12,567 nucleotides of DNA from an uncultured archaeon (GCA_964510585.1 CAZECW010000045.1:1-12567), one strand, 5' to 3'. Counted from the first letter of the stretch, positions 440 to 12,567 are shown. Notes: generated by a model not told the origin, from the sequence alone. Program-made: numbers and translations.

Positions 440-880
440 ATGAGCGAAGTAAAAGAAATGGATTTTGAGGTGCTGAGAGAACCTTGGAACGTATACCAAC
501 TTGAAGAGGGACCAATACTTAAAATCAAATACGTATTGACAAGAGTTATAAAAAGAAGGGAGGACGGAGGACGGTTCGGTTATGCCTTTAAAGGCCAAAA
601 TGTAGTAGCTTTTTCCCACATTCCACCTGAACTTAGGGGTGAACCCACACGTGCAATTTATAGTCCAATGGAGCTCCAAGCCTCCATAGTAAATGAGGAC
701 GTCCGATACACAACCATAGCTGAGGAGTGGAACGAGTACCTGGCCGAAGACGGAACCAAAATAAGGGTAAAATTAACAGTTGTCAAAGTCTCCAGAACAA
801 ATAAAAGAGACGTGGACGGTGAACCCATATACCTAGTTCAAACATCCCTACTCCCCCAAATTCAGCCAAGAAAAAAGTAA
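440..880 (+). CDS. Hypothetical protein, 146 aa, two tandem copies of a ~65-80 aa domain
   Basis: Clean ORF preceded by GGGAG. EPWNVYQLEEGPILKIKYVLTRV aligns with EEWNEYLAEDGTKIRVKLTVVKV (period 81 aa). Confidence 0.8.
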   Translation: MSEVKEMDFEVLREPWNVYQLEEGPILKIKYVLTRVIKRREDGGRFGYAFKGQNVVAFSHIPPELRGEPTRAIYSPMELQASIVNEDVRYTTIAEEWNEYLAEDGTKIRVKLTVVKVSRTNKRDVDGEPIYLVQTSLLPQIQPRKK

Positions 881-992
881 TACAACATCAACTCCAACTA
901 TGTGCTCCCCACACTATACCCTCTCACCATCCAATAGAAAAACAATAATAAGCTGCCACTGCCTAACCATAGTAATAGAGAAAAACTCAAAT

Positions 993-1010
993 GAGAAAAC
1001 CTTTTTTAAA
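993..1010 (+). promoter_or_regulatory. Putative archaeal BRE/TATA promoter for the 1053 gene
   Basis: GAGAAAAC followed by CTTTTTTAAA, about 43 nt before the ATG. RBS GAGGTGA lies at 1042-1048. Confidence 0.5.
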
Positions 1011-1052
1011 CTGGATTTCTAACCCGCGGTGAAAGTTGTTTGAGGTGAGCTT

Positions 1053-1733
1053 ATGGCAGAAGACCAAAAAGACAGGCAATCTACTAAAGCAGAAAGGGTC
1101 ACAATTGTTGAGGGAGGATCTGTCGATATCTGCGGTTGGCACGTGGCACTCACATCCATCTGGATTCATAATGGCTCAATCAAAGCAGAGCTAGCCATGT
1201 GGTCAGACAAAATCAAAAAACCCCTGTCAGGCGGTTACTCAAAGGGGAACAAGGTTGAAATAGGAACGTCAAACTGCATTTACTACGTGTATGAAATCAA
1301 AAAATTTGGAAAAAACAATGAAAAGCCAGGCTATATAGTTCTCACCACAAATAAGCCAGAAATTTTGGAGACCAAAAATTACCAAGAATTGGAGTCAATT
1401 GAAGCCACAACCAGAGCCTACATAGGTGATGCTGATTTCGGCTTAGGCCTTGTCTACAAAAGAAATGATGGAAAAATGGTTGCAACGATCTGCCCACCGC
1501 TTAACAGTCCACTTGGGCAGGATTTTGATTTATGCGAAGGAGACACTCTCTGGGTCGGAGAATGCGCCTACAATGTTGAAAAAATCGTCGATGGCTACAG
1601 AAAACCCGACGGAAGATACGAGAACGGCTACATAGTGCTAAAAAAACACAAAGAACTACTCCCAAATAAAGGTCCAATAATCCCCGGAGAATGGATATCG
1701 CAACCCCCCACCACACCAAAAGATGACCCGTAG
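1053..1733 (+). CDS. Hypothetical protein, 226 aa, two tandem beta-rich domains
   Basis: Strong RBS. GNKVEIG..CIYYVYEI..GYIVL (aa 65-97) is echoed by GDTLWVG.CAYNVEKI..GYIVL (aa 163-196). Pro-rich tail. Confidence 0.82.
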   Translation: MAEDQKDRQSTKAERVTIVEGGSVDICGWHVALTSIWIHNGSIKAELAMWSDKIKKPLSGGYSKGNKVEIGTSNCIYYVYEIKKFGKNNEKPGYIVLTTNKPEILETKNYQELESIEATTRAYIGDADFGLGLVYKRNDGKMVATICPPLNSPLGQDFDLCEGDTLWVGECAYNVEKIVDGYRKPDGRYENGYIVLKKHKELLPNKGPIIPGEWISQPPTTPKDDP

Positions 1734-1798
1734 CATCGAAAAACTGTTGGAGCCCTGTCGCACCTTGAAAAGATTAACACGAGAATCCATTTATTTTG

Positions 1799-2224
1799 TC
1801 AAATTTTGAATGTTTCTTCGATGAATTTTTTGCATAGGTTATGCACCCATCTTGCTTTTTCAAAGGCATCCGGTGCATAGTCTTTAAAGTATGTTTCATC
1901 TATCCCTTTTTCAAACCCGTAACCCGCAAGTCCCCTTTGCTCAGCAAGTTCAGCAACTATGTCCGCAATTAATCCAAGTTCTTTCCTAAACCATTGGGGC
2001 AAGTTGGGAATTCCTTGGATTTGCAACAACACATCGCTCACATCATGCTCTTTAGGAAAATCTATACCCAGAGAAATCAGAACGGCCTTAGCTGAATGCT
2101 CGGCCGCCATCTGTGAACTATACACAACATCATCCCAGCGTTTATCTTCAATTGCCCTCTCGGCACTTTGAAGCCACCTTGCAGCTCTGCTTATGCCCTG
2201 TGTTGCCATGCCAATATTTCTCAC
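1799..2224 (-). CDS. HEPN domain protein (PF05168/COG2250-like)
   Basis: A.RWL..AE....D..W....Y.SQMAAE.S.KA.L...G..FPKEHD..... and RGLAGY are typical of this HEPN class. GTG start overlaps the upstream stop (GTGA); alternative ATG at 2209. Confidence 0.92.
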   Translation of the reverse strand: MRNIGMATQGISRAARWLQSAERAIEDKRWDDVVYSSQMAAEHSAKAVLISLGIDFPKEHDVSDVLLQIQGIPNLPQWFRKELGLIADIVAELAEQRGLAGYGFEKGIDETYFKDYAPDAFEKARWVHNLCKKFIEETFKI

Positions 2225-2976
2225 AGCTCGAAAACCTCCCCTGCCTTAACCTGCTTTAAATGCCAGTAGGTTTTTCCACTCGCAGTGGTTATCCGCATAG
2301 CTCCAAGCTTTGAGAGCTTCTCCCTGAATTCGCCCAAAACCTTTGAAAGGAAACCCTCCTTCTCATAAAGGATTATCCCCTCCATACAGGCATCAATATA
2401 TATTCTGTGGGGCTCCAAAGCTTCAGACTTACTTAAAGGATAATGTTGAATCGACGTTGGAAAGTTTCGCTCCACAAGCCTCTGGAACTCCAATGTTTCA
2501 CGCATCTTCCTCCTCAGCTTTACAAGCTCCCTCGTTCGCTCCCAGACCGGCTTATCCCAACCCTCAACCACCACGAGCAAATCAATGTCAGAGTCCCTAT
2601 CCCAACTTCCCCTAGCCACCGATCCGAAAACAAGGACTCCAACCAAGCGCTGGGAAAAATGCTCATAGAGAACCTTGCAATACCTAGATAAAAAGTCAGC
2701 ATAGATGCAAGGCAATCTTTCAAGGTTTTTAAGACTGATGCTGGGATGAAAAAGAGATTCAAAGCTTTCAAGAAGGCTCTCAGCGCGTTCACCCTTCTCC
2801 GATAGGGAGTAAAGCCTGTTTTCGGAAACTACGAGGCCTCCTGATACAAGCATTTTCAACCTTTTGCTCAGGGTTTTGGGATTGTGCACAATTTGGCGTA
2901 GCTCTCCGAAACGGGTTTTGCCTTCCTTCAACTTCTTCAAAATCCTTATAGTGTACTCATCAATCAAGGCAACCAC
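2221..2976 (-). CDS. HxlR-like winged-helix fused to a minimal nucleotidyltransferase (MNT)
   Basis: N-terminal ILKKL..GKTRFGELRQIV.NPKTLSKRLKML...GLV....RLYSLSEKGE is a wHTH. GSVARGSWDRDSDID is an exact GSx10DxD motif. Start may be GTG 2976 or TTG 2967. Confidence 0.9.
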   Translation of the reverse strand: MVALIDEYTIRILKKLKEGKTRFGELRQIVHNPKTLSKRLKMLVSGGLVVSENRLYSLSEKGERAESLLESFESLFHPSISLKNLERLPCIYADFLSRYCKVLYEHFSQRLVGVLVFGSVARGSWDRDSDIDLLVVVEGWDKPVWERTRELVKLRRKMRETLEFQRLVERNFPTSIQHYPLSKSEALEPHRIYIDACMEGIILYEKEGFLSKVLGEFREKLSKLGAMRITTASGKTYWHLKQVKAGEVFEL

Positions 2977-2983
2977 AACAAAA

Positions 2984-3019
2984 TAGTTTACAAAAGTATA
3001 TAAATACTTTACTAAAATA
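2984..3019 (-). promoter_or_regulatory. TATA box of the wHTH-MNT/HEPN operon flanked by an inverted repeat (putative operator)
   Basis: Minus-strand TTTATATA at 2997-3004. TTTACAAAAGTAT (2987-2999) and ATACTTTACTAAA (3004-3016) form an 11/13 inverted repeat around it. Confidence 0.65.
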
Positions 3020-3155
3020 TATCAATAGAGATGCAGAATTACTCAATTTCGCCCCCCAAAGCATTTATACAGCTTCCTTTTCGGTTAAACCCCAAAATAA
3101 GGAATAGAATCAAACACCCCTAAACCACCACATAAATATGAAGACGGAGAAACAG

Positions 3156-3183
3156 AAAAAAGGGAAGAAATATGAGAAAAAAA
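3156..3183 (-). terminator. Oligo-T terminator region after the Fe-S gene
   Basis: Minus-strand T7 (3177-3183) and T6 (3156-3161) tracts within a pyrimidine-rich stretch just after the TAA stop. Confidence 0.5.
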
Positions 3184-3187
3184 TTTG

Positions 3188-4399
3188 TTATACTAGGGCT
3201 AAATTGTCCGCAACTAGCTCCGCTATGTCTAAAACCCTAATTTTGGAGCCAAGAGCCTCCTTTGCGTCCTGAAGATTCATTATACAGAAGGGGCAGGCTG
3301 TCACTAGGTAATCTGCTCCGGTTTCCTCTGCTTCCTTTATCCTGTCCTTAGCTATCTCAACAGCCAGTTCTGGAAAACCACTCTTAACACCCCCACCTGC
3401 ACCGCAGCACCAGGAAGCGTCCCTTATCCTTTTCATTTCCACAACCTTAACACCAGGCATCATTTTTAATATCTCCCTTGGAGCTTCATAGATTCCCATG
3501 TGTCTGCCAAGGTGGCACGGATCATGGTAGGTCACTTTTACATTTGCCTTTTCTAGTTTCAGTTTGCCCTCCTTCAACAGGTCTCGGATGAGATCCACTG
3601 CATTAACAACCTCGAATGGAAGCTTGCCAAAGAGCTCCACATAATCCTTGGCAATAGTTCTGAAACAGCCAGCACAATGAATTACAACTTTTTTGGCTCC
3701 CGAAGCCTTTAGAACCTCCAAATTGTGACTAGCGAGTTCCCTAGCCAAATTCCAGACCCCTGTTCTGAAAAATATTGAGCCACAGCACCATTCATCGGGG
3801 TGCACTATGCCAAAATCCACATCCGCAGCTTCCAAAATCTTCAGAAAAGCCTGGGCAAGCTCGGGCATTCGATAGGGCTCCGTGCATCCCACAAACCATA
3901 TTAAATCAGCATTCCGGGGAACGGTTTTGCCTGCAGGTAGCCATTTTAAACGATCCTCATGTTTCTCCATATAGGGGTTATGTTCCTTCCTAGTCCACTC
4001 CGCAATTTCCCTGTGTCTCGGCATGGGGCCCAGCCCTTCTTCCACAAGGTCTGCTCTCATAGCCTCAAAGAGCTTTGTGTGATCAATAAATCGTCCTATC
4101 GGTAACACTATGTACTCACACATAGTTTGGTGACACGCTGAGTGGCAACTTCCACAAGTGGTACACTGGTAAAGCACCTTCGCCAAGCCCTCACTGGGCT
4201 CAAGCAACCCCTCTAAAATCCCTTTAGCAATGCGTATTTTGCCCCTGGCATAGTACGGGTCGAACTGGGGGGAGTGCTCAAGAACTGGACAAACTCCGTA
4301 TCTGCCTACAGCCCATCTATAAGCTATTCTACAGTCACCTATACCGGAGCAGGCATAAACCATATCTGAAAGCCTTTTTGTGTTTTCCATTTTCGCCAA
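3188..4399 (-). CDS. (Fe-S)-binding oxidoreductase with two CCG domains (GlpC/GlcF/HdrD-like)
   Basis: Ferredoxin-like CTTCGSCHSAC and GVCP. CCG domains: FVGC..CCGS..HCAGC and YHDPCHLGR..CCGAGGG..TACPFC. Start is TTG 4399 (RBS GGGGG) or ATG 4390. Confidence 0.93.
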   Translation of the reverse strand: MAKMENTKRLSDMVYACSGIGDCRIAYRWAVGRYGVCPVLEHSPQFDPYYARGKIRIAKGILEGLLEPSEGLAKVLYQCTTCGSCHSACHQTMCEYIVLPIGRFIDHTKLFEAMRADLVEEGLGPMPRHREIAEWTRKEHNPYMEKHEDRLKWLPAGKTVPRNADLIWFVGCTEPYRMPELAQAFLKILEAADVDFGIVHPDEWCCGSIFFRTGVWNLARELASHNLEVLKASGAKKVVIHCAGCFRTIAKDYVELFGKLPFEVVNAVDLIRDLLKEGKLKLEKANVKVTYHDPCHLGRHMGIYEAPREILKMMPGVKVVEMKRIRDASWCCGAGGGVKSGFPELAVEIAKDRIKEAEETGADYLVTACPFCIMNLQDAKEALGSKIRVLDIAELVADNLALV

Positions 4400-4411
4400 T
4401 GATGATCCCCC

Positions 4412-5893
4412 CTACAGGTAGAACTTTCCTGGGCTAATAATCCTGTTAGGATCTAGGGCCTGTTTGATACTCTTAAGAAAAGAATAGTAAGCTCCATTGA
4501 AGGCCTCCGTATCTATTAAGCCCTTGCTGTATATTTCTCCCAACATGTAAGGCATGCCTCCCTCTCTTATGAGCATCTCGAGTTGGCTCTTCCAGAGTTC
4601 TAGGTTCTTCGCCCTATATTGCGGTTTGTCCCAAGCCAAAAGTCCAGCGTCAACTTCCACAGTAGTGTGTCCACAAAGAAGGGCGGTAGATATCCCGGAC
4701 TGCATCCCCCCATTGGCATCAAGCTCAGCCTTGTGCGCCGCTTCCCACTCATCAAGTTTATGAGCTATGTAGGGGAAACGGTGAATTGGAACATGGACTT
4801 CAGTTGTCAAGGGTATAGAGCCTGGCCCCATTCCACCCCATATGCCGTGGAAGGTTAGCCAGTGGCCCTGTTCTTCATAGTGCCACTTGGCATAGTTTCC
4901 ATCTTTAAGCTCTGGACCCAGCTCTGTGCAGCCATTCTCTTTACATATTCGGTCCACAATTTTAATATTTGCTTCCAGCTGTTCTTCTGTCTCTGCTTCC
5001 ATGGTGTAAAAGAACACAGCTTTCGTTAATCCTACCCACGGCTTTATTTGGGGCACATCTGTTAATAGCTGTGTGCCTAGAACCATTGTTAGTGTCCAAA
5101 GTTGTGAATCAAATATTCCAAGGTCTCCTCTCTTCCTCCACGCTAGCCAGATTTTGGCCGCGTTTTCCGGTGAGGGTTCCTCTATGGTAAAGGTCTTAGC
5201 CGCATGGTAGGGAGGTTTTGGGAAAATCTCCAAGGTGGCCTTGGTTTTGATCCCCAAAAGCCCATTGTCACCCAGAAATAGCCCAGTTAAATCCGGGCCG
5301 AAACCGAACCTGCAGAATGGCTCCTTGGTGTAGACGCTGGCGTTGGAGCCAGTGTTTATTATGTCTCCATTTGGCAGAACGACTTCTAGAGCCACGCAGT
5401 GCTGAGTGCATGTGCCGTATTTTGCTCCTCCGCCTCCTCCCACGCTGTGGTGTGAGAGGCCGCCTCCAACTACTGCGGATATTCCACTTCCCGGACCGAG
5501 GTTTCCAGTGTAGTAGCCCAACTCGTTGAGTTTGGAGTTAAGCTCTGCCCAGGTTATTCCTGTCTCAACGGTAACTGTAAGAGCGTTTTCGTCTATGTTT
5601 AATATTTTGTGCATTCTGGCGGTGTCCAGAACTATGCTTCCTTTCTCTATGGGCTTAGAGCCTCCCAGTAGGCAGCAACCTCCGCCGCGGGGAACTATGG
5701 GTATCTTGTACTTGTTGGCTATTTTTACTACTTCTGCTACTTCTTCGGCTGTTCCCGGTTTCACCACATAGTCTGGAGGGTTGGGAGGCAATGCGCTGTC
5801 TATGCCTCTTGCGTAGGCATAGGTTATGAAATCTTCGTCGGAAACGTATTCTGTACCCACCGCGTCCTGCAACAATTTTAGAACCTTACTCAT
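4412..5893 (-). CDS. FAD-binding oxidoreductase, VAO/PCMH fold (GlcD/Dld-like but atypical)
   Basis: PDYVVKP.TAEEV..VVK.AN.YKIPIVPRGGG, LEVVLPNG, DLTGLF.G..G.LGI.TKA and DPNRI.SPGK. RBS GAGGTG at 5899-5904. Confidence 0.93.
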   Translation of the reverse strand: MSKVLKLLQDAVGTEYVSDEDFITYAYARGIDSALPPNPPDYVVKPGTAEEVAEVVKIANKYKIPIVPRGGGCCLLGGSKPIEKGSIVLDTARMHKILNIDENALTVTVETGITWAELNSKLNELGYYTGNLGPGSGISAVVGGGLSHHSVGGGGGAKYGTCTQHCVALEVVLPNGDIINTGSNASVYTKEPFCRFGFGPDLTGLFLGDNGLLGIKTKATLEIFPKPPYHAAKTFTIEEPSPENAAKIWLAWRKRGDLGIFDSQLWTLTMVLGTQLLTDVPQIKPWVGLTKAVFFYTMEAETEEQLEANIKIVDRICKENGCTELGPELKDGNYAKWHYEEQGHWLTFHGIWGGMGPGSIPLTTEVHVPIHRFPYIAHKLDEWEAAHKAELDANGGMQSGISTALLCGHTTVEVDAGLLAWDKPQYRAKNLELWKSQLEMLIREGGMPYMLGEIYSKGLIDTEAFNGAYYSFLKSIKQALDPNRIISPGKFYL

Positions 5894-5957
5894 AATAGCA
5901 CCTCAAAAATCGCAGTGTTTTTTATTCCAAATGCAATAAATTTTGTATATGTTGATT

Positions 5958-6836
5958 CTAGCGTTTAGCCATGGGTATGCTTTTGAAGCCTCTGCATATT
6001 TCTGTTACTGCTTTCTCAACGGGTATTCTTTCAATGGATGAGGCTCCTACGAATCCTTGGGCGATAGTCTTCTCATATATGATTTTGGTGCTCTCCGGGT
6101 CATAGAATGGTCCTCCATGTATTAGGCAGATTACTTCAGGGTTTACTTTTCTTGCTGCTTCAAATATTTCCTGTGCCCTCTTAAGTAGGGTATCTAAATC
6201 TTCCAGTGCAGTAAACCCCGCTATGCCTCCCATTGTTGGTCCCACATGGGCGCATATCGCGTCTGCTCCGGCTTCGGCCATATCTTTTGAGTCTGCCGCA
6301 GTGAAGACGTAAGCCATGGTAAAAACGTCCCAATCATGTAGGATTTTTATCATTTCCACTTCTCTGGACCATCCCCAGTGGGCGACGCCGTATCCAAAGG
6401 CCATAGACTCGTTGAATTTTCTGAGGGCCATTCCTCCCTCTATTAGGTTCTCATAAAGTCCTGTTGTAGGAAAGTTTATCACTCCGTTGAATCCTTTGTT
6501 GAGGAAACGTTTTAGTAAGGCTTCTAGGTCGAGGCAGAAGCAGTCGTTGGCCTCCACGCCTGCGATTATGGGCTTGTTTTTAACAACGTTCGCTATTTCA
6601 TCATACATTTCTAGTGTTATGGGGTTTGAGTTCCCAATTATGGTAGTGGGTAGCCCCATCAATCTGGTTTTTCCCGTGCTGTAAATAATTATCAGGTCTG
6701 CTTGGCCGAGCTCAGCGCATTTTGCTATTATTCCGGCACTGCACCCTGCCCCCAGAATCGGTCTATTTTCGCTAATTTCTTTGTGGAGTCTATCAAGTAT
6801 TTCCTTTCTGGTTATTTTTACTACCATTTTACTCAT
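5958..6836 (-). CDS. TIM-barrel protein of the PEP-hydrolase-like / TIM-barrel signal transduction family (PF09370-like)
   Basis: GAGCSAGIIAKCAELG.ADLIIIY, GF.GV.NFPT.G, YVF, AGAD.I..H.G.T.GG, HGGP and GF.GASS.ERIP are family hallmarks. ATGA overlap with the upstream gene. Confidence 0.92.
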   Translation of the reverse strand: MSKMVVKITRKEILDRLHKEISENRPILGAGCSAGIIAKCAELGQADLIIIYSTGKTRLMGLPTTIIGNSNPITLEMYDEIANVVKNKPIIAGVEANDCFCLDLEALLKRFLNKGFNGVINFPTTGLYENLIEGGMALRKFNESMAFGYGVAHWGWSREVEMIKILHDWDVFTMAYVFTAADSKDMAEAGADAICAHVGPTMGGIAGFTALEDLDTLLKRAQEIFEAARKVNPEVICLIHGGPFYDPESTKIIYEKTIAQGFVGASSIERIPVEKAVTEICRGFKSIPMAKR

Positions 6837-8074
6837 CTCCTTCTCGTGATTAATTCCTCAAAAGTTTCAACTACTTTATCCGCAAACATGTCATCATTAA
6901 TGTGGCAGTCAACCTCAACAACTTTGACCTTCTTTTCCACGTTCTCCTTTAATGAATCAATGAATCCTTGGTCAGCTTCGGGGTCGTATAGGGGTGCACC
7001 CCTTTTGCTGGCTTCAGAGAAACCGCGCAGGGGAATTATAATTGCTACTGATCCCTTGGCTCTATTCGCCCTCTCTGCAATGTTTTTGCCCACCTTTTCT
7101 AGCTCCTCTTTAGTGGTTCTCACCAATACTACACTTGGCCCATGCATGGTCCATTTGCGACCTTTAAACTCGGAGGGAACTTGATCTATTCCTGTTCCCG
7201 GAAATATGTGCATATCTAGGCCGCCGGGGGCTATTATTTGGGGGAGAGCCTTCTCATTGGCACTTTCCAGGCGTACCCTCCTCACTTCGGGGGCACCTAT
7301 TAACATTGAGATGTATTCTGGGGGGTATAGAACCATTGGAATGGTTTCAAAGGAGGTGATATCGATGACTGCGTCGATGCTTCCCTCTCTTATCAGTCTG
7401 TCTAGCATGGGCGTTTTTGCGTGGAAGGTTACAGCATTGTATCCCTTCTTCTCTAGACGAGAGATGACTTTCTGGACGCATGGGGTTGTGACTCCAAGAA
7501 CAGTCATGCCTACAAGCGGCTTCTCTTCTGCTTTGGGAACCTCCTGTTCCACCATGCCTATAATTGCGCCCGCCGCGTTGGATAGTGTTCTTTTAACTAT
7601 TTTGTCGAGACCCACTAAATCTACGGGTGTTTGCATCACAGTTATGTCCTCGTCCCCTATGGGTCTGGGGTCTATGAATGTAGTTACTAAAAGTTTGGGT
7701 ACCCCTATGGGAAGTACCTTCATAGCTGCTGTTCCCAATGCTGCTGCGGTTGTGCCGCCTAAACTCATTATGCCATCCAGCTCGCCTTTGGAATACAAGT
7801 CTCCCACTATTTTTTTGACTCCCTCTACCATTACTTTGGTGGCTTCGAACCTGTCAGCGCCCTTTTCAGCGGCTTCCACAAGTTCTTTAAGGCTTTTGCC
7901 GCCGGCTTCAGCAACCTTCTCTCTGGGAACATCTCCCCTAATTAGGGGTTTGCCCATGACTCCTGCATCCACAATTATTGCTCGATGTCCCTTTTTCTCA
8001 ATTATTTCCTTTAGATATTTGACCTCGTCTCCTCTAGTATCCAGAGTGGCTACAATCACAATTTTCTTAGCCAT
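6833..8074 (-). CDS. Tm-1-like ATP-binding domain protein (UPF0261)
   Basis: IVATLDT.GDE, LP.GVPKLL.TT, N.AGAI.GM, VG.T..GVTTPCV, PGGLDM, P.RGFS and HIND..FA are UPF0261 hallmarks. RBS GGAGG at 8085-8089. Confidence 0.93.
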   Translation of the reverse strand: MAKKIVIVATLDTRGDEVKYLKEIIEKKGHRAIIVDAGVMGKPLIRGDVPREKVAEAGGKSLKELVEAAEKGADRFEATKVMVEGVKKIVGDLYSKGELDGIMSLGGTTAAALGTAAMKVLPIGVPKLLVTTFIDPRPIGDEDITVMQTPVDLVGLDKIVKRTLSNAAGAIIGMVEQEVPKAEEKPLVGMTVLGVTTPCVQKVISRLEKKGYNAVTFHAKTPMLDRLIREGSIDAVIDITSFETIPMVLYPPEYISMLIGAPEVRRVRLESANEKALPQIIAPGGLDMHIFPGTGIDQVPSEFKGRKWTMHGPSVVLVRTTKEELEKVGKNIAERANRAKGSVAIIIPLRGFSEASKRGAPLYDPEADQGFIDSLKENVEKKVKVVEVDCHINDDMFADKVVETFEELITRRR

Positions 8075-8297
8075 CCTATTTATTCCTCCAACCTAATATT
8101 CAAGGCTTCCAACCACGTCTTGTTCCATATTCTAAACTTCCCAGCCACAAAAGAGAGGATGCACCTATACTCTGCCTAGAATACTTTTAAAGGGAAATCA
8201 TTGCTCTAATCACACCTCTCTTCCGGGGAAAATGCAAGTTACGGATATGTATCCTTAAATATTATGAATGCACTTAATAGTTATTTAAATCTAATCT

Positions 8298-8378
8298 TGA
8301 AACCTTAAAGAAGCGATTGTTAGATAAAAAGAGCGCTCAAGAATGTAGATCCTAAAAAATGCTGAAACCTGAAAGAAG
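8298..8378. repeat. 16-bp imperfect direct repeat (8298-8313 and 8363-8378) in the divergent intergenic region
   Basis: TGAAACCTTAAAGAAG versus TGAAACCTGAAAGAAG, 15/16 identical, 65 nt apart. Confidence 0.6.
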
Positions 8379-8466
8379 ACAATAGAGAAAAAAATGTGAG
8401 CAGATAAGTTGTTAACTAAATGGGTGGTGTTAGTAGACTAAAATTAAGGATTTGAGAGGTGTTGGA

Positions 8467-10413
8467 ATGCCTGTTTTCAAAAAACTATTTGAACCCATAA
8501 AAATTGGGAGAATGGAGCTAAAAAACAGGATTGTCATGCCCGCCATGTGCTCCAAGTTTGGCACAGAGCTAGGAGCTGTAAACCAGCGAATCATCGACTA
8601 CTATGTTGAGAGAGCAAAGGGTGGAGTTGGCCTCATAATAATAGAGAATACATGCATTGAGTGGCCCAGGGGGAAGGCTGGAGCAAGCCCAATAAGAATA
8701 GACGACTGGAAGTACGTTAGCGGTCTACACGACTTAGCGGAGGCCGTACACTCCTACGATGCAAAGATTGCCACTCAACTACATCACACCGGAAGGCAAA
8801 ACTCTACACTGTGTACTGAGGGAGTGGAGCTTGTTGCCCCCTCACCAATACCATGCGCCGCAATGGGAGGTGAGATGCCCCGAGAACTGACAACAGAAGA
8901 GGTGGAACAATTGATTGATAAGTATGTTCAGGGGGCTCATAGAACAATGTCTGCGGATTTCGACGCTGTGGAGCTTCACGGCGCCCACGGCTATCTCATA
9001 AGCCAATTTATGTCTCCCCTCACTAACAAGAGGAAGGACAAGTACGGTGGAGACTTCGAGGGACGCATGAGGTTTCCCCTCGAAATAATAGAGAGAATAA
9101 AAGCCATAGTAGGCCCAGACTTTCCAATAATATTCAGAATCAGCGGAGACGAGTACATAAAAGGCGGACTCACAATAGAGGACACCAAAAAGATCGCCAA
9201 GAGACTGGAGGAGGCCGGTGTACATTGCATTAGTGTCTCAGCAGGAATCTACGAGTCCGAACCTTCCTGGTTTGCTAAAATCTATCCCCCTTCTGCCATG
9301 CCCAAGGGCTGCTATGTCCCCCTAGCTGAGGCAATAAAAAGCGTGGTAAAAATCCCAGTTATCGTGGTGGGCAGGCTCAGTGACCCCATACTCGCCGAGA
9401 AAGTACTGCAGGAAGGTAAGGCTGACCTCATAGCCATGGGAAGAGGATTGCTTGCAGATCCCTACCTACCACAGAAAATAGCTGAGAATAGACTGGAGGA
9501 TATTAATCCCTGCATCTACTGCAACCAAGGTTGCTACGGAAACCTTTTCAAAATGTGGAGCATACAGTGCGACGTTAACCCCGCACTGGGACAAGAAAGA
9601 GAATTCCAAATACAACCTGCCAGCGAGGCAAAAAAAATCATGGTGGTGGGTGGAGGACCTGCAGGCATGGAGGCAGCGCGAGTTTTAGCTCTTCGGGGAC
9701 ACAAGGTTACCCTATACGAAAAGGAGGGAGAATTAGGAGGACAGATCAGGGCTGGCTCTGTAGCAAGCTTCAAAGAACCAGTGGGAGAGCTATTAAAATA
9801 CTTCAGGACACAGCTGAACAAACTAAACGTAAAGGTGGAACTAAATGTTGAGGTGGACGCTAAACTGGTAAGTAAAGTGAAGCCCGACGTATTGGTAGTT
9901 GCTACGGGTGCAGTGCCAATCATACCGGATGTGCCCGGTGCTGATGGAGAAAATGTGGTTTTGGCAACTGATGTTTTGCTTGGGCGAAAGGCTGTGGGTG
10001 AGCGTATAGTTGTGATTGGGGGTGGCGAGGTTGGGGTGGAGGTCGCCATTCACCTTGCAGAGAACGGAAAAAAGGTTTCCATAATTGAGAAGGGTTTCGC
10101 CCTCCTACTAGAATTGAACACTGTTACTCGCCTGTATCTCCTTTGGAGATTGGCTCAGCTGGGAGTAGAAACAATCATTATGGCCAACGTGAAGGAGATA
10201 AAGAAGGATTCTGTGGTTATAGATAGAGGGGGCAAAACCGAAGAGTTTAAGGCAGACAATGTTGTGCTTGCTGTAGGCTTTAAGCCAAACAGGGAACTCT
10301 TGGAAAAATTGAAGGCCACAAATATACCAGTTTACGAGATAGGAGATTGCAAAAAAATAGGTAGGCTCAAGGGAGCAATACATGGAGGATCAATTATTGC
10401 AAGGAGAATATAG
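8467..10413 (+). CDS. NADH:flavin oxidoreductase / ene-reductase (OYE TIM barrel + [4Fe-4S] + FAD/NAD domain; 2,4-dienoyl-CoA/enoate reductase-like)
   Basis: LFEPIKIG.MELKNRIVMPAM, ELHGAHGYLISQF.SP.TN.R.D.YGG, CIYCNQGC..C, GGGPAGMEAA and IGGG.VG.E. ATG 8467 (RBS GAGGTG at 8456-8461) is preferred over TTG 8452. Confidence 0.95.
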   Translation: MPVFKKLFEPIKIGRMELKNRIVMPAMCSKFGTELGAVNQRIIDYYVERAKGGVGLIIIENTCIEWPRGKAGASPIRIDDWKYVSGLHDLAEAVHSYDAKIATQLHHTGRQNSTLCTEGVELVAPSPIPCAAMGGEMPRELTTEEVEQLIDKYVQGAHRTMSADFDAVELHGAHGYLISQFMSPLTNKRKDKYGGDFEGRMRFPLEIIERIKAIVGPDFPIIFRISGDEYIKGGLTIEDTKKIAKRLEEAGVHCISVSAGIYESEPSWFAKIYPPSAMPKGCYVPLAEAIKSVVKIPVIVVGRLSDPILAEKVLQEGKADLIAMGRGLLADPYLPQKIAENRLEDINPCIYCNQGCYGNLFKMWSIQCDVNPALGQEREFQIQPASEAKKIMVVGGGPAGMEAARVLALRGHKVTLYEKEGELGGQIRAGSVASFKEPVGELLKYFRTQLNKLNVKVELNVEVDAKLVSKVKPDVLVVATGAVPIIPDVPGADGENVVLATDVLLGRKAVGERIVVIGGGEVGVEVAIHLAENGKKVSIIEKGFALLLELNTVTRLYLLWRLAQLGVETIIMANVKEIKKDSVVIDRGGKTEEFKADNVVLAVGFKPNRELLEKLKATNIPVYEIGDCKKIGRLKGAIHGGSIIARRI

Positions 10414-10417
10414 AACT

Positions 10418-10462
10418 CCATCCGCCTCTCCTTTATTTTTTGGGAGGGTGGGGGCTCTTTTT
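10418..10462 (+). terminator. Putative terminator: stem-loop with T tracts
   Basis: CCGCCTCTCC can pair with GGAGGGTGG around a TTTATTTTTT loop, followed by CTCTTTTTCT, just after the TAG stop. Confidence 0.5.
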
Positions 10463-10591
10463 CTGGTTGATGTTCCAAATTTTTTGGGGCTTCCTAGAGT
10501 TTTCCTTACAAAAAAGTAATTAGTGTAGCTTAAATATAGTTTTCTTGAGAAAGGTTTTGCAGTTAAAGGGAAGTTTTTGGGTGTTTTAAAA

Positions 10592-11911
10592 GTGGTTGAG
10601 ATGACTTTTTATGGTGGGGTTGGAGAGGTCGGCGGCAACATGTTCCTTCTCAGTGACAGAGATACCAGGATCTTCTTGGACTTTGGTATGAACTATGCTG
10701 CGAGGAGAAATTTTTATTCTTGGCCGGCTCTGCAACCCAGGGATGAGAGGGGGTTGCTGGATTTTGGACTCATACCCAACCTAACTGGAATATACCAATA
10801 TGAGGAGTCTGAGCCCGGTGTTAACGCTGTTTTCCTCACCCACTCCCATGGAGATCATAGCGGCTATGTCTCGTTAATTAAAAGGAGGATTCCTGTTTAT
10901 TGTGGTGAGACCACTTGCCTTATAATGAAGGCTATGGACGCCATTGGTAGAAAAACCTTCGAGAAGGACTTGAAAGGAATAGAGTGGAGAACTTTTCGCA
11001 CCGGTGACCATTTGGAAATCGGCGGTGTGGAAATCATTCCCATACATGTAGATCACTCTGTTCCTGGAGCTTACGGCTTCATAATTCACACCTCTGAAGG
11101 GACAATTGTGTATACTGGGGATTTCAGGACTCATGGAACAAAACCCATGTTAACTGAGGACTTTGTGCAGAAGGCGGCTGAGGAGAGTCCCGAAGCCGTT
11201 ATTTGTGAGGGCACAAACATTATGCAGGCCAGGGTCTCAAGTGAGAGGGATGTGGAGGTGGAGCTAGACAGCGTGGTGGCTAGCACTCCCAAAATTGTTT
11301 TAGCCAGTTTCGGTCACAACGATATAGACCGCTTGAGATCCTTTTACAATGTGGCTCAAAAAAATGACCGCTACCTGGTGATTTCGCTGAAGCAAGCCTA
11401 CCTATTGAGGGAACTACAAAAAGACCAGAGATTAGAGGTTCCCGACGTTACAGGAGACAGGTTTATAATATTAGACGAGGAGAAGAGAAAAAACAGGTGG
11501 GAGAGGGAGGAGATTCAGAAATATAGCAACACTAAAACCATTACAGAGATTGGCAAAATCCAAGACAAAATAATTTATATCATGTCACAGTTTGACCTAA
11601 ACGACCTTGTGGAAATTAGACCTGAGGCGGGTAGCGTTTACATCTACTCCTCTTCAGAACCCTTCACCGAGGAGGGAGAAATAGACTTTGAACGGCTCAA
11701 AAACTGGCTGGCATGCTACGGTCTACCACTCTACCAGATACACGCCTCGGGACACGTAATGCCCCACCAACTAGCGGAGGTAATAAGAAGGGTGAAGCCC
11801 AAAAAACTGGTTCCAGTGCACACCGAATATCCTGAAACCTTCAAAAAATACTTTGGAAAAAATGTCAATGTAGAACTGCCCACAAAAAACCAAACAATGA
11901 AAATACTCTAA
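10592..11911 (+). CDS. Metallo-beta-lactamase/beta-CASP nuclease, RNase J-like (COG0595-type)
   Basis: GGVGEVGGN, LDFG, THSHGDH (HxHxDH), VDHS, YTGDFR, EGT, HASGH and PVHTE. Start is ambiguous: TTG 10577, GTG 10592 or ATG 10601. Confidence 0.92.
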   Translation: MVEMTFYGGVGEVGGNMFLLSDRDTRIFLDFGMNYAARRNFYSWPALQPRDERGLLDFGLIPNLTGIYQYEESEPGVNAVFLTHSHGDHSGYVSLIKRRIPVYCGETTCLIMKAMDAIGRKTFEKDLKGIEWRTFRTGDHLEIGGVEIIPIHVDHSVPGAYGFIIHTSEGTIVYTGDFRTHGTKPMLTEDFVQKAAEESPEAVICEGTNIMQARVSSERDVEVELDSVVASTPKIVLASFGHNDIDRLRSFYNVAQKNDRYLVISLKQAYLLRELQKDQRLEVPDVTGDRFIILDEEKRKNRWEREEIQKYSNTKTITEIGKIQDKIIYIMSQFDLNDLVEIRPEAGSVYIYSSSEPFTEEGEIDFERLKNWLACYGLPLYQIHASGHVMPHQLAEVIRRVKPKKLVPVHTEYPETFKKYFGKNVNVELPTKNQTMKIL

Positions 11912-11943
11912 AAACAACTCCGGCAACACATACCCTGAAAGGC

Positions 11944-12567
11944 TCACGGGATTTCTGCCAGAAAATCTAATATTTCTTGGACTGCTTCATCCATTTTTTC
12001 TCTCAAGAATCCATGGGGAGCATCCTTAAACAGTTTTAACTTGGCCCCAGGAATAAGTTTAGCAATAATTCTAGAATTTTCTGCGGGTACAATTAAGTCC
12101 TTTTCTCCAGCCATAACAAGGGTGGGAGCCCTAATACTGGGTAAACGATCACAAGCATCAAAGGCTAGAACTGCTTCCGCCTGCCTCCTTTTACCGGTAA
12201 CCGTTGTGGGATACTTTACAGACAGAGCTCCCTTCAATAGCTCATCTCGATGCTCCCTCAAACAATTGGGAGAGTATACTAGGCTCCACCAAAGCTCTAA
12301 CGCCTCTTTCTGAGACATTTCGGGAGGGGGATTCGCCACAATGAACATTTTCTTTTGCACCTCTTTGGAAACCGGCACACTCTTGGGGCCGCCGCAGGTT
12401 GCCATGCAAAGAATCAAACCCTTAACCTTCTGGGGATAATTAATAGCGAATTCCTGGGCAATCATTGCCCCCATTGAGGCTCCTAGTATGTGGGCTTTGG
12501 GAACCTTTATGGCATCCATCAACCCCGCAAGGTCATCCGCCAACATTTTTATGGTGTAGGGGATGTC
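11944..12567 (-). CDS. Alpha/beta hydrolase, 5' end outside window
   Basis: GASMG nucleophile elbow, GEKD acid and APHG His give an intact triad. The frame stays open to the window edge (DIPYTIK|MLADDL), so 12546 is not the true start. Confidence 0.93.
   Translation of the reverse strand, partial: DIPYTIKMLADDLAGLMDAIKVPKAHILGASMGAMIAQEFAINYPQKVKGLILCMATCGGPKSVPVSKEVQKKMFIVANPPPEMSQKEALELWWSLVYSPNCLREHRDELLKGALSVKYPTTVTGKRRQAEAVLAFDACDRLPSIRAPTLVMAGEKDLIVPAENSRIIAKLIPGAKLKLFKDAPHGFLREKMDEAVQEILDFLAEIP

Follow-up and report, generated by a model that had tools for sequence, protein, structure and literature searches.

A UPF0261 kinase-like protein, a PF09370 barrel and an OYE-type flavoenzyme as a probable mobile module in an Asgard archaeon

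Introduction

UPF0261 proteins and PF09370 TIM barrels form a pair that is common in bacteria, archaea, fungi and, fused as Tm-1, in plants; the co-evolution of the two families and the plant fusion were described in 2016 (PMC5028733). One UPF0261 enzyme and no PF09370 protein have been characterised. The enzyme is MarK (Saro_1862) of Novosphingobium aromaticivorans, which uses ATP to phosphorylate acetovanillone at its phenolic oxygen, with release of ADP (J Biol Chem 2025, PMC12624787), and it is the sole UPF0261 enzyme with a demonstrated reaction. For PF09370 proteins, no activity is reported in the literature searched. Here we describe such a pair in a 12,567-nucleotide (nt) stretch of DNA (GCA_964510585.1, CAZECW010000045.1), the whole of which is referred to as the window. 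A first-pass annotation of this DNA held that the pair has no established reaction, a statement now outdated in part, since MarK, a UPF0261 protein, is an ATP-dependent aromatic kinase.

The host is an Asgard archaeon of the Candidatus Jordarchaeia/Freyarchaeota, according to the names carried by close homologues. In a sequencing-run search, window DNA is present in eight hot-spring DNA runs, and no RNA run containing it is among those listed.

The first-pass annotation placed the pair at the head of a co-oriented four-gene redox operon, followed by genes for an FAD protein and a Fe-S protein with CCG domains (together the FAD/CCG pair). The follow-up combined an open reading frame (ORF) scan, Pfam/NCBIfam profile scans and comparative loci. 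A divergent plus-strand gene that had been missed, encoding an old yellow enzyme (OYE)-type flavoenzyme, is the conserved redox partner of the UPF0261/PF09370 pair. With moderate confidence, we regard the core of the locus as a horizontally mobile module made up of a UPF0261 kinase, its coupled PF09370 barrel and an OYE resembling FadH and 2-naphthoyl-CoA reductase (NCR), to which the FAD/CCG pair was recruited locally.

Gene organisation

The features of the core region are as follows.

8452/8467-10413, plus strand: OYE/FadH-like Fe-S flavoenzyme (Oxidored_FMN and Pyr_redox_2 domains)
8075-8466, between the two strands' genes: divergent intergenic region of 392 nt, with putative back-to-back archaeal promoters
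6833-8074, minus strand: UPF0261 protein (Tm-1 N-terminal type; PF06792 and PF23189), probable ATP-dependent small-molecule kinase
5958-6836, minus strand: PF09370 'PEP hydrolase-like' TIM barrel (Pfam 264 bits), overlapping the UPF0261 gene at ATGA
5894-5957, minus strand: barrel-FAD spacer of 64 nt, in which a GAGGT ribosome-binding site alone is conserved
4412-5893, minus strand: GlcD-like FAD-linked oxidoreductase of the VAO/PCMH superfamily (FAD_binding_4, 123 bits)
3188-4399, minus strand: HdrD/GlcF/GlpC-like Fe-S subunit, partner of the FAD protein (Fer4_8 and two CCG domains)
3183-3177 and about 3162-3156 (within 3156-3187), minus strand: two oligo-T tracts in the sequence, a likely archaeal terminator of the four-gene unit

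In the ORF scan, the four minus-strand genes match the first-pass description exactly in coordinates, in the ATGA coupling (a 4-nt overlap of the UPF0261 and barrel genes) and in the 64-nt and 12-nt gaps, the latter lying between the FAD and CCG genes at 4400-4411. None of the four genes has a DNA-binding domain in the Pfam/NCBIfam scans, as had been noted, and the pair is indeed the split form of Tm-1, with the same domain order (PMC5028733). The UPF0261 and barrel genes are each the only member of their family in the whole genome.

An OYE gene is the conserved partner of the pair

Linkage was assessed in loci that encode a close relative of the barrel, 25 of them in species genomes and 42 in metagenomes. 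Homologues of the window genes were located in every locus, and the loci in which the pair has 3 kb or more of sequence to either side formed a strict subset. In 21 of the 24 loci of this subset, the pair has an OYE gene no more than 7 kb away, at less than 3.5 kb in most of them and often as the next gene; such a gene is present in 35 of the 42 loci having at least 1.5 kb on one side. The FAD and CCG genes are found in only four of the 24 well-flanked loci, all four Asgard, and in five of the 42; in none of the bacterial loci examined do they stand beside the pair. The proposed link between the pair and redox genes thus holds for the OYE, which lies outside the region first considered, and for the most part not for the FAD/CCG pair.

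Carriers of the OYE-linked pair include Chloroflexota (Dehalococcoidia, Chloroflexia), Poribacteria, Hydrogenedentota, Binatota (Binatia), Pseudomonadota, Abyssobacteria and others, with a delta-proteobacterial metagenome-assembled genome (MAG) and the cultured-type gammaproteobacteria Thalassotalea and Parahaliea among them. Called-gene tables give a tight UPF0261-barrel-OYE operon in a Dehalococcoidia chromosome and a UPF0261-barrel-DUF362-OYE operon in Abyssobacteria. The OYE-UPF0261-barrel triad is also carried by cultured-type marine gammaproteobacteria of Thalassotalea, Parahaliea and Halioglobus (loci L028 and L030-L032), with an AraC-family regulator near the module in L028, L031 and L032.

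A reciprocal check started from four OYE homologues, 58-61% identical, that were picked blind to gene context. In three of the four loci, the OYE gene is directly upstream of UPF0261-PF09370 in the same operon; in the fourth (L095), another OYE gene stands between it and the PF09370 gene, and no UPF0261 gene is called. Long-form OYEs at 56-70% identity are also found in L058, L085 and L086.

Clustering of neighbouring genes identifies the OYE, UPF0261 and barrel families as the only generally conserved ones. The UPF0261 gene adjoins the barrel gene in 54 of the 66 clustered loci, most of the remainder being cut short, and precedes it in the great majority of related loci. The next commonest neighbours are DUF362 and a double-HTH MerR regulator (13 loci each) and a GMC oxidoreductase (7), followed by CCG (6), FAD (5), a glyoxalase-fold protein (4) and short-chain dehydrogenase/reductase (SDR) genes (3); in locus L094, a further SDR and a zinc-dependent alcohol dehydrogenase (Zn-ADH) stand beside the module. 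DUF362 and the LarA 2-hydroxyacid racemases belong to the same Pfam clan (PMC11770544).

Five Jordarchaeia loci retain the four-gene arrangement, their proteins being 83-99% identical, and linkage of FAD/CCG to the pair is confined to Jordarchaeia plus one other Asgard MAG, LC30 (L029). The LC30 genes are co-directional in the order FAD-CCG-FAD'-CCG'-UPF0261-barrel, with 11 nt between CCG' and UPF0261. This order differs from that of the window, so the linkage exists in two gene orders within Asgard archaea. Followed across loci, the four-gene neighbourhood largely breaks down at FAD/CCG, which are found in no bacterial locus and are also lacking in L051, a second copy of the module on a related contig (below). 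No link of UPF0261 or PF09370 with OYEs or ene-reductases was found in the literature searched, and the clade-wide OYE-UPF0261-barrel triad therefore appears undescribed.

The FAD/CCG pair

Besides its FAD_binding_4 domain, the FAD protein has a weak match to FAD-oxidase_C, and its solved relatives align over the FAD-binding half only. The CCG protein (two CCG domains, 129 bits, with Fer4_8) has intact motifs: one full CxxCxxCxxxC at C79-C89, CCG205 and CCG331. None of the curated equivalogs GlcD, GlcF, TfrB, LdhH and GlpC was reached in the NCBIfam scan, with scores of 147 against a cut-off of 568 bits for glcD (TIGR00387), 80 against 333 for GlcF and 247 against 385 for TfrB. The closest Protein Data Bank (PDB) entry to the CCG protein is 9OJN, a 1042-residue chain titled 'iron-sulfur-binding reductase', which we take, from that length alone, to be a fused YdiJ-type enzyme.

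Homologues of the FAD protein at 42-82% identity are spread across Loki-, Hel-, Hod-, Baldr-, Sigyn- and Atabeyarchaeia. FAD is followed by CCG in all four loci sampled (Atabeyarchaeum, Helarchaeota, Baldrarchaeia and a close relative), and no UPF0261 or barrel gene is near FAD/CCG in these four. The pair is a free-standing, Asgard-wide unit of the 2-hydroxyacid-dehydrogenase type. On an Atabeyarchaeum-type contig (L038), it adjoins LarB-like (AIRC) and LarC-like (Ni_insertion) genes, and genes for DUF362 and a 2-hydroxyacid dehydrogenase lie no more than 8 kb away; this context hints that the Asgard family acts on lactate-type 2-hydroxy acids.

The 3.8-Mb genome encodes 25 FAD_binding_4 paralogues (for example C193:27795-29270 and C122:5657-7132), an unusually large expansion of GlcD-like proteins for an archaeon with a genome of this size; relatives in the genus have 11-20. 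The paralogue that is 86% identical to the window's FAD protein lies on contig C193, and neither it nor a 67% paralogue has UPF0261 or barrel genes nearby. The C193 copy is flanked by a CoA-binding/succinyl-CoA-ligase-like gene and a 292-residue ORF, which occupies the place of an NAD-kinase gene in an 82%-identical relative (position and length being all that was compared). As its neighbours match those of this relative in position and length, C193 is taken as the native position, and the window copy is therefore read as a recent duplicate placed behind the barrel gene.

Transcription signals

When four Jordarchaeia species (the window, L012, L013 and L014) are aligned, the GAGGT ribosome-binding site is the conserved part of the 64-nt spacer. 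The TTTATT that the first-pass annotation had flagged as a possible internal promoter occupies minus-strand positions 5940-5935, a shift of one base from the 5936-5941 first given; it is missing from the three other species and was rejected as a promoter. Oligo-T, a known termination signal of archaeal RNA polymerase, is found only after the CCG gene, and the tracts there are conserved in L012 and L013. Scans for sigma-70 promoters and hairpin terminators gave counts at or below shuffle level, with models that are not applicable to archaea. Because the spacer has no conserved promoter and oligo-T follows only CCG, the UPF0261-barrel-FAD-CCG genes are read as one unit, and the earlier view of a single transcription unit looks right at this level.

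The divergent region contains a nearly invariant block of about 50 nt (about 8253-8300) in the four aligned loci, within which TATA-like elements, TTTAAATAA (8289-8281, minus strand) and TTAAATATTAT (8255-8265, plus strand), face both ways. They are putative back-to-back promoters and would suit joint control of the OYE gene and the four-gene unit. Further into the long UPF0261 leader, a nearly invariant CCCCGGAAGAGAGGTGTGATTAGAGCAATGA at 8160-8215 on the minus strand looks like the ribosome-binding site and ATG of a 4-codon mini-ORF. A structured leader or riboswitch upstream of UPF0261 was considered and rejected, as 8075-8255 folds with z = 0.51 and matches no Rfam family; there are no Rfam matches anywhere in the window.

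An accessory block and its mobility

The remaining features of the window belong mainly to a larger block.

881-10480, both strands: accessory block of about 9.7 kb carrying orf226, HEPN/MNT, CCG, FAD, barrel, UPF0261 and OYE (comparison with genome G005)
2221-2976, minus strand: HxlR-type winged helix-turn-helix (wHTH) fused to a nucleotidyltransferase, the next gene downstream of CCG
1799-2224, minus strand: HEPN protein, its gene overlapping the nucleotidyltransferase gene by 4 nt
1053-1733, downstream of the four genes: ORF without family assignment (ORF and Pfam scans)
11944-12567, minus strand: alpha/beta-hydrolase gene continuing past the window end, outside the indel block

In G005, a complete genome of the same genus, homologues of window positions 459-861 and 10567-11917 lie about 120 bp apart (G005:C1:299121-301000), so G005 lacks about 9.7 kb from orf226 to OYE. 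The genes flanking the block in G005 are orf146 and an RNase J-like gene. Neither an integrase nor a clear repeat was found at the block ends, and a search for direct or inverted repeats bordering the island gave none that convince; just the 10-nt ATTTTTTGGG is duplicated, downstream of the OYE gene.

Barrel homologues occur in eight of 400 Asgard genomes and four of 85 genera, and are about 70% identical to bacterial ones. In the barrel tree, the Asgard copies fall within a well-supported clade of mostly bacterial members. On a 342-kb contig from related Jordarchaeia, the window's arrangement (L050) is accompanied, about 45 kb away, by a second copy (L051; Ga0315314_1000009, 254979-271842), in which SDR-OYE genes diverge from UPF0261-barrel genes at 76-83% identity. 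This copy lacks FAD/CCG; its flanks hold an AbiEi/AbiEii pair and a DUF488 gene. From this second copy, we take the module to be both duplicated and mobile in the lineage. As part of the reading favoured above, and with the same moderate confidence, we see the core as passing horizontally between bacterial and archaeal lineages, the block as accessory, and the core of the Jordarchaeia locus as an import.

As the wHTH-nucleotidyltransferase gene is paired with HEPN, these two genes are treated as a separate unit of the toxin-antitoxin type. They give weak PADLOC matches to the candidate system PDC-S09, and lie inside the accessory block, yet the island as found in L050 lacks them. Alpha/beta-hydrolase genes are another recurrent feature near the pair: homologues of the window's enzyme are found there in three other loci (L020, L022 and L076), and the L094 operon includes a hydrolase of the same Pfam families. 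The window's alpha/beta-hydrolase may share a pathway with the module.

The three core proteins

The UPF0261 protein scores 158 bits for PF06792 and 206 bits for PF23189 (both domains above the gathering score; cut-off 27), and 403 bits for the NF002674 subfamily (cut-off 335). It aligns with MarK (9MPY) over residues 5-410 at about 30% identity (E 2.4e-48) and with Tm-1 (3WRY) at E 6.6e-45. The nucleotide motif is D12-T13-R14, whose Arg is invariant in 15 clade members (alignment A2); MarK (D14/T15/K16) and Tm-1 (K20) have Lys where the clade has Arg, and the positive charge is retained. In the same alignment, H218, the equivalent of MarK H219 that contacts the acceptor oxygen, and H311, the equivalent of the stacking H304, are invariant. 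MarK's ketone-binding H348 aligns with Ala355 (9MPY alignment), which is also invariant in the clade. Since H218 and H311 are kept and H348 is replaced by an invariant Ala, the protein likely has kinase-type activity on a substrate other than that of MarK.

The barrel matches PF09370 at 264 bits against a gathering score of 33.8. Its closest solved relative in the PDB sequence search is Mll9387 of Mesorhizobium loti (2P10; E 1.1e-51, 35% identity), and the predicted structure (pLDDT 76.6) superposes on 2P10 with a Foldseek E of 1e-21 and a VIA Z of 27.5 (rmsd 2.8 over 246 residues). The nearest fold outside the family is 4ML9, 'TIM barrel with conserved phosphate binding site' (VIA Z 18.1). 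With this model, PEP mutase/isocitrate lyase (ICL)-type members reach Z scores of 16.4 (KPHMT), 15.4 (phosphonopyruvate hydrolase), 14.8 (ICL) and 14.5 (PrpB), and IGPS, KDPG aldolase, TrpA and triose-phosphate isomerase share the same flat plateau; for this reason, the PEP mutase/ICL fold is not separable here from generic phosphate-binding TIM barrels. As modelled, the protein is a (beta/alpha)8 barrel of the phosphate-binding type, with invariant Cys, His, Asp and Glu residues and GG/GAS-type motifs.

The OYE ORF is 648-653 residues long and divergent from the UPF0261 gene; its true start is likely the ATG at 8467 (648 residues), which has GAGGTG just upstream, and homologues are 648-649 residues long. 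The protein scores 268.6 bits for Oxidored_FMN and 125.8 bits for Pyr_redox_2, and among PDB entries it is closest to 2-naphthoyl-CoA reductase (6QKG, 398 bits) and FadH (1PS9). It contains the cluster motif C354-x2-C357-x3-C361-x11-C373, two GxGxxG dinucleotide-binding motifs and the active-site H-x-x-H-G-Y (H176/H179/Y181). Equivalog cut-offs are not reached for BaiCD (559 vs 825 bits), mycofactocin OYE_2 (545 vs 793) or BilR (496 vs 750). The genome has five OYE genes, and that of the window is the only one adjoining the UPF0261/barrel pair.

The pair looks like enzymes rather than regulators, as the first-pass annotation proposed.

Proposed function and alternative readings

In the pathway that we propose, the UPF0261 kinase would transfer phosphate to an oxygen, hydroxyl or enol, on a small organic acid or a cyclic compound. 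The phosphate ester would then be bound by the barrel, which, with phosphate as leaving group or through an enolate-type step, would yield an activated C=C bond for the OYE to reduce with NAD(P)H. The FAD/CCG pair would interconvert 2-hydroxy and 2-oxo forms, filling a hydroxyl-to-carbonyl dehydrogenase slot that SDR, GMC or Zn-ADH enzymes would hold in bacteria. Such activation-elimination-reduction chemistry, carried out by a widely spread ATP-driven OYE-UPF0261-PF09370 module, is put forward tentatively. A first guess at the substrate class, based on the DUF362 and FAD/CCG associations, is a 2-hydroxy/2-oxo acid, the main alternative being a phenolic compound or cyclic enone. In Jordarchaeia, the FAD/CCG copy is probably co-transcribed with the barrel gene, and we lean, by a small margin, towards its working in the same pathway as the module.

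Several points weigh against the favoured reading. LC30 has no OYE gene within 9 kb of its pair, so the OYE is not obligatory, and FAD/CCG may carry more weight in archaea than we allow. The number of Asgard loci is small and they are related to one another, and the Jordarchaeia/LC30 node of the barrel tree is a polytomy that does not separate one acquisition from two. The OYE family is common, and the short (417-residue) and long (650-residue) forms that adjoin the pair may not be orthologous. Co-transcription of the four genes and their co-regulation with OYE are putative, and the catalysis, substrate and complex of clade members are predictions. A kinase-barrel complex has indirect support, from the plant fusion and the reported co-evolution of the two families (PMC5028733). 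The role given to the barrel is a guess, as the MarK homodimer works without a barrel partner.

It is possible, though we doubt it, that FAD/CCG are an unrelated passenger, a duplicated native pair that landed beside the imported module and shares no pathway with it. The genome has 25 FAD_binding_4 paralogues, the block is a variable island that also bears the HEPN/MNT unit, and the spacer differs in length and sequence between species. Chance placement fits poorly, however, with a shared strand, a short spacer with a conserved ribosome-binding site and no conserved terminator-like T-run between the genes, with an arrangement kept across species that are about 80% identical in DNA, and with a second Asgard lineage, LC30, in which the linkage is just as tight.

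The same co-orientation and short gaps, the retention in five Jordarchaeia loci, the tight LC30 array and the promoter-free spacer could instead reflect what the first-pass annotation proposed: a functional four-gene pathway in which the product of the pair is oxidised by the FAD/Fe-S dehydrogenase, thereby revealing the ancestral function of the Tm-1 domains. We consider this unlikely. FAD/CCG are absent beside the pair in all bacterial loci and in L051, close homologues (including the 86% and 67% paralogues) stand apart from UPF0261 and barrel genes, and the Asgard phyletic patterns disagree, the FAD family being widespread and the barrel restricted to eight of 400 genomes. For these reasons, the FAD/CCG coupling is lineage-specific and does not represent the ancestral or general function of the pair.

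Less probable still is a role in anaerobic aromatic catabolism, in which a MarK-like phenol kinase would activate the ring and an NCR-like OYE would reduce or dearomatise it. MarK, the one UPF0261 enzyme characterised so far, adds phosphate to phenolic OH groups, its catalytic and ring-stacking His residues are conserved here, and the best solved relative of the OYE is a dearomatising enzyme. Glyoxalase/VOC, alpha/beta-hydrolase, sulfatase, GMC and MerR/AraC genes recur nearby, and p-cresol methylhydroxylase and eugenol oxidases are among the best PDB matches to the FAD protein, in the FAD-binding domain only. Set against this are the invariant Ala at the ketone-binding position and the independence of MarK from a barrel partner. 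The profile scans found no carboxylase domain of the AcvCDEF/HpeCBA type in any window ORF, nor CoA-ligase or ring-cleavage genes, and an aryl phosphate does not present an OYE with an activated alkene.

Finally, a signalling or defence function, to which the family's historical name (TIM-barrel signal transduction), the binding of viral replicase by plant Tm-1, the HEPN/MNT unit on the island and the AbiEi/AbiEii genes beside the second copy might point, is very improbable, given that PADLOC matched none of the four genes or OYE except through a trivial Rossmann motif, that in bacteria the module sits in metabolic operons equipped with MerR or AraC regulators of their own, and that no DNA-binding or output domain is present.

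Implications and comparison with known systems

The range of chemistry to consider for the pair is narrowed by the finding that this clade travels across many phyla with a specific OYE-type Fe-S flavoenzyme, together with dehydrogenases of varying type and a LarA-clan relative. If the tentative activation-elimination-reduction chemistry holds as well, both the PF09370 barrel and the two-domain ancestor from which plant Tm-1 derives would gain their first reaction, and a GlcD/HdrD-type dehydrogenase would have been recruited into the module's pathway in Asgard archaea. The FAD/Fe-S link is a local feature of a few Asgard genomes and no clue to ancestral function. Genetics is feasible in cultured carriers (Parahaliea mediterranea DSM 21924 and Thalassotalea sp. 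PLHSN55), where AraC regulators adjoin the module.

The locus resembles several described systems in part. Like MarK, the window protein has the two-domain UPF0261 build, the acceptor-contacting His and the stacking His, with D-T-R where MarK has D-T-K; MarK, in contrast, is a homodimer without a PF09370 partner and adjoins a biotin carboxylase cluster that is absent from the window, whereas the window kinase is paired with a barrel gene. Mll9387 belongs to the same PF09370 family as the window barrel, and its title of 'putative phosphonopyruvate hydrolase' is a structural-genomics annotation rather than a demonstrated activity.

The FadH-type enzymes (1PS9, 6QKG, BaiCD and BilR) share with the window OYE an FMN barrel, a CxxCxxxC...C cluster, FAD/NAD(P)H domains and the HxxHGY site, but no characterised member has been reported with a UPF0261/PF09370 pair. 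GlcD/GlcF, D-lactate dehydrogenase with an HdrD-like subunit and fused YdiJ likewise combine a FAD_binding_4 flavoprotein with a following Fer4 and double-CCG protein, from which the window differs in the divergent substrate-binding cap domain of its FAD protein.

The closest parallel to the pair as a whole is Tm-1 of tomato and its plant relatives (3WRV-3WRY), in which UPF0261 is followed by the PF09370 barrel in the same order (PMC5028733), and in which the GVTTPCV and FHA motifs are common to the plant proteins and the window. The plant protein is a single fused chain, whereas the window has two genes with overlapping stop and start codons; and the plant fusion is known only as a binder of viral replicase, without the OYE or FAD/CCG neighbours that accompany the pair in the window.

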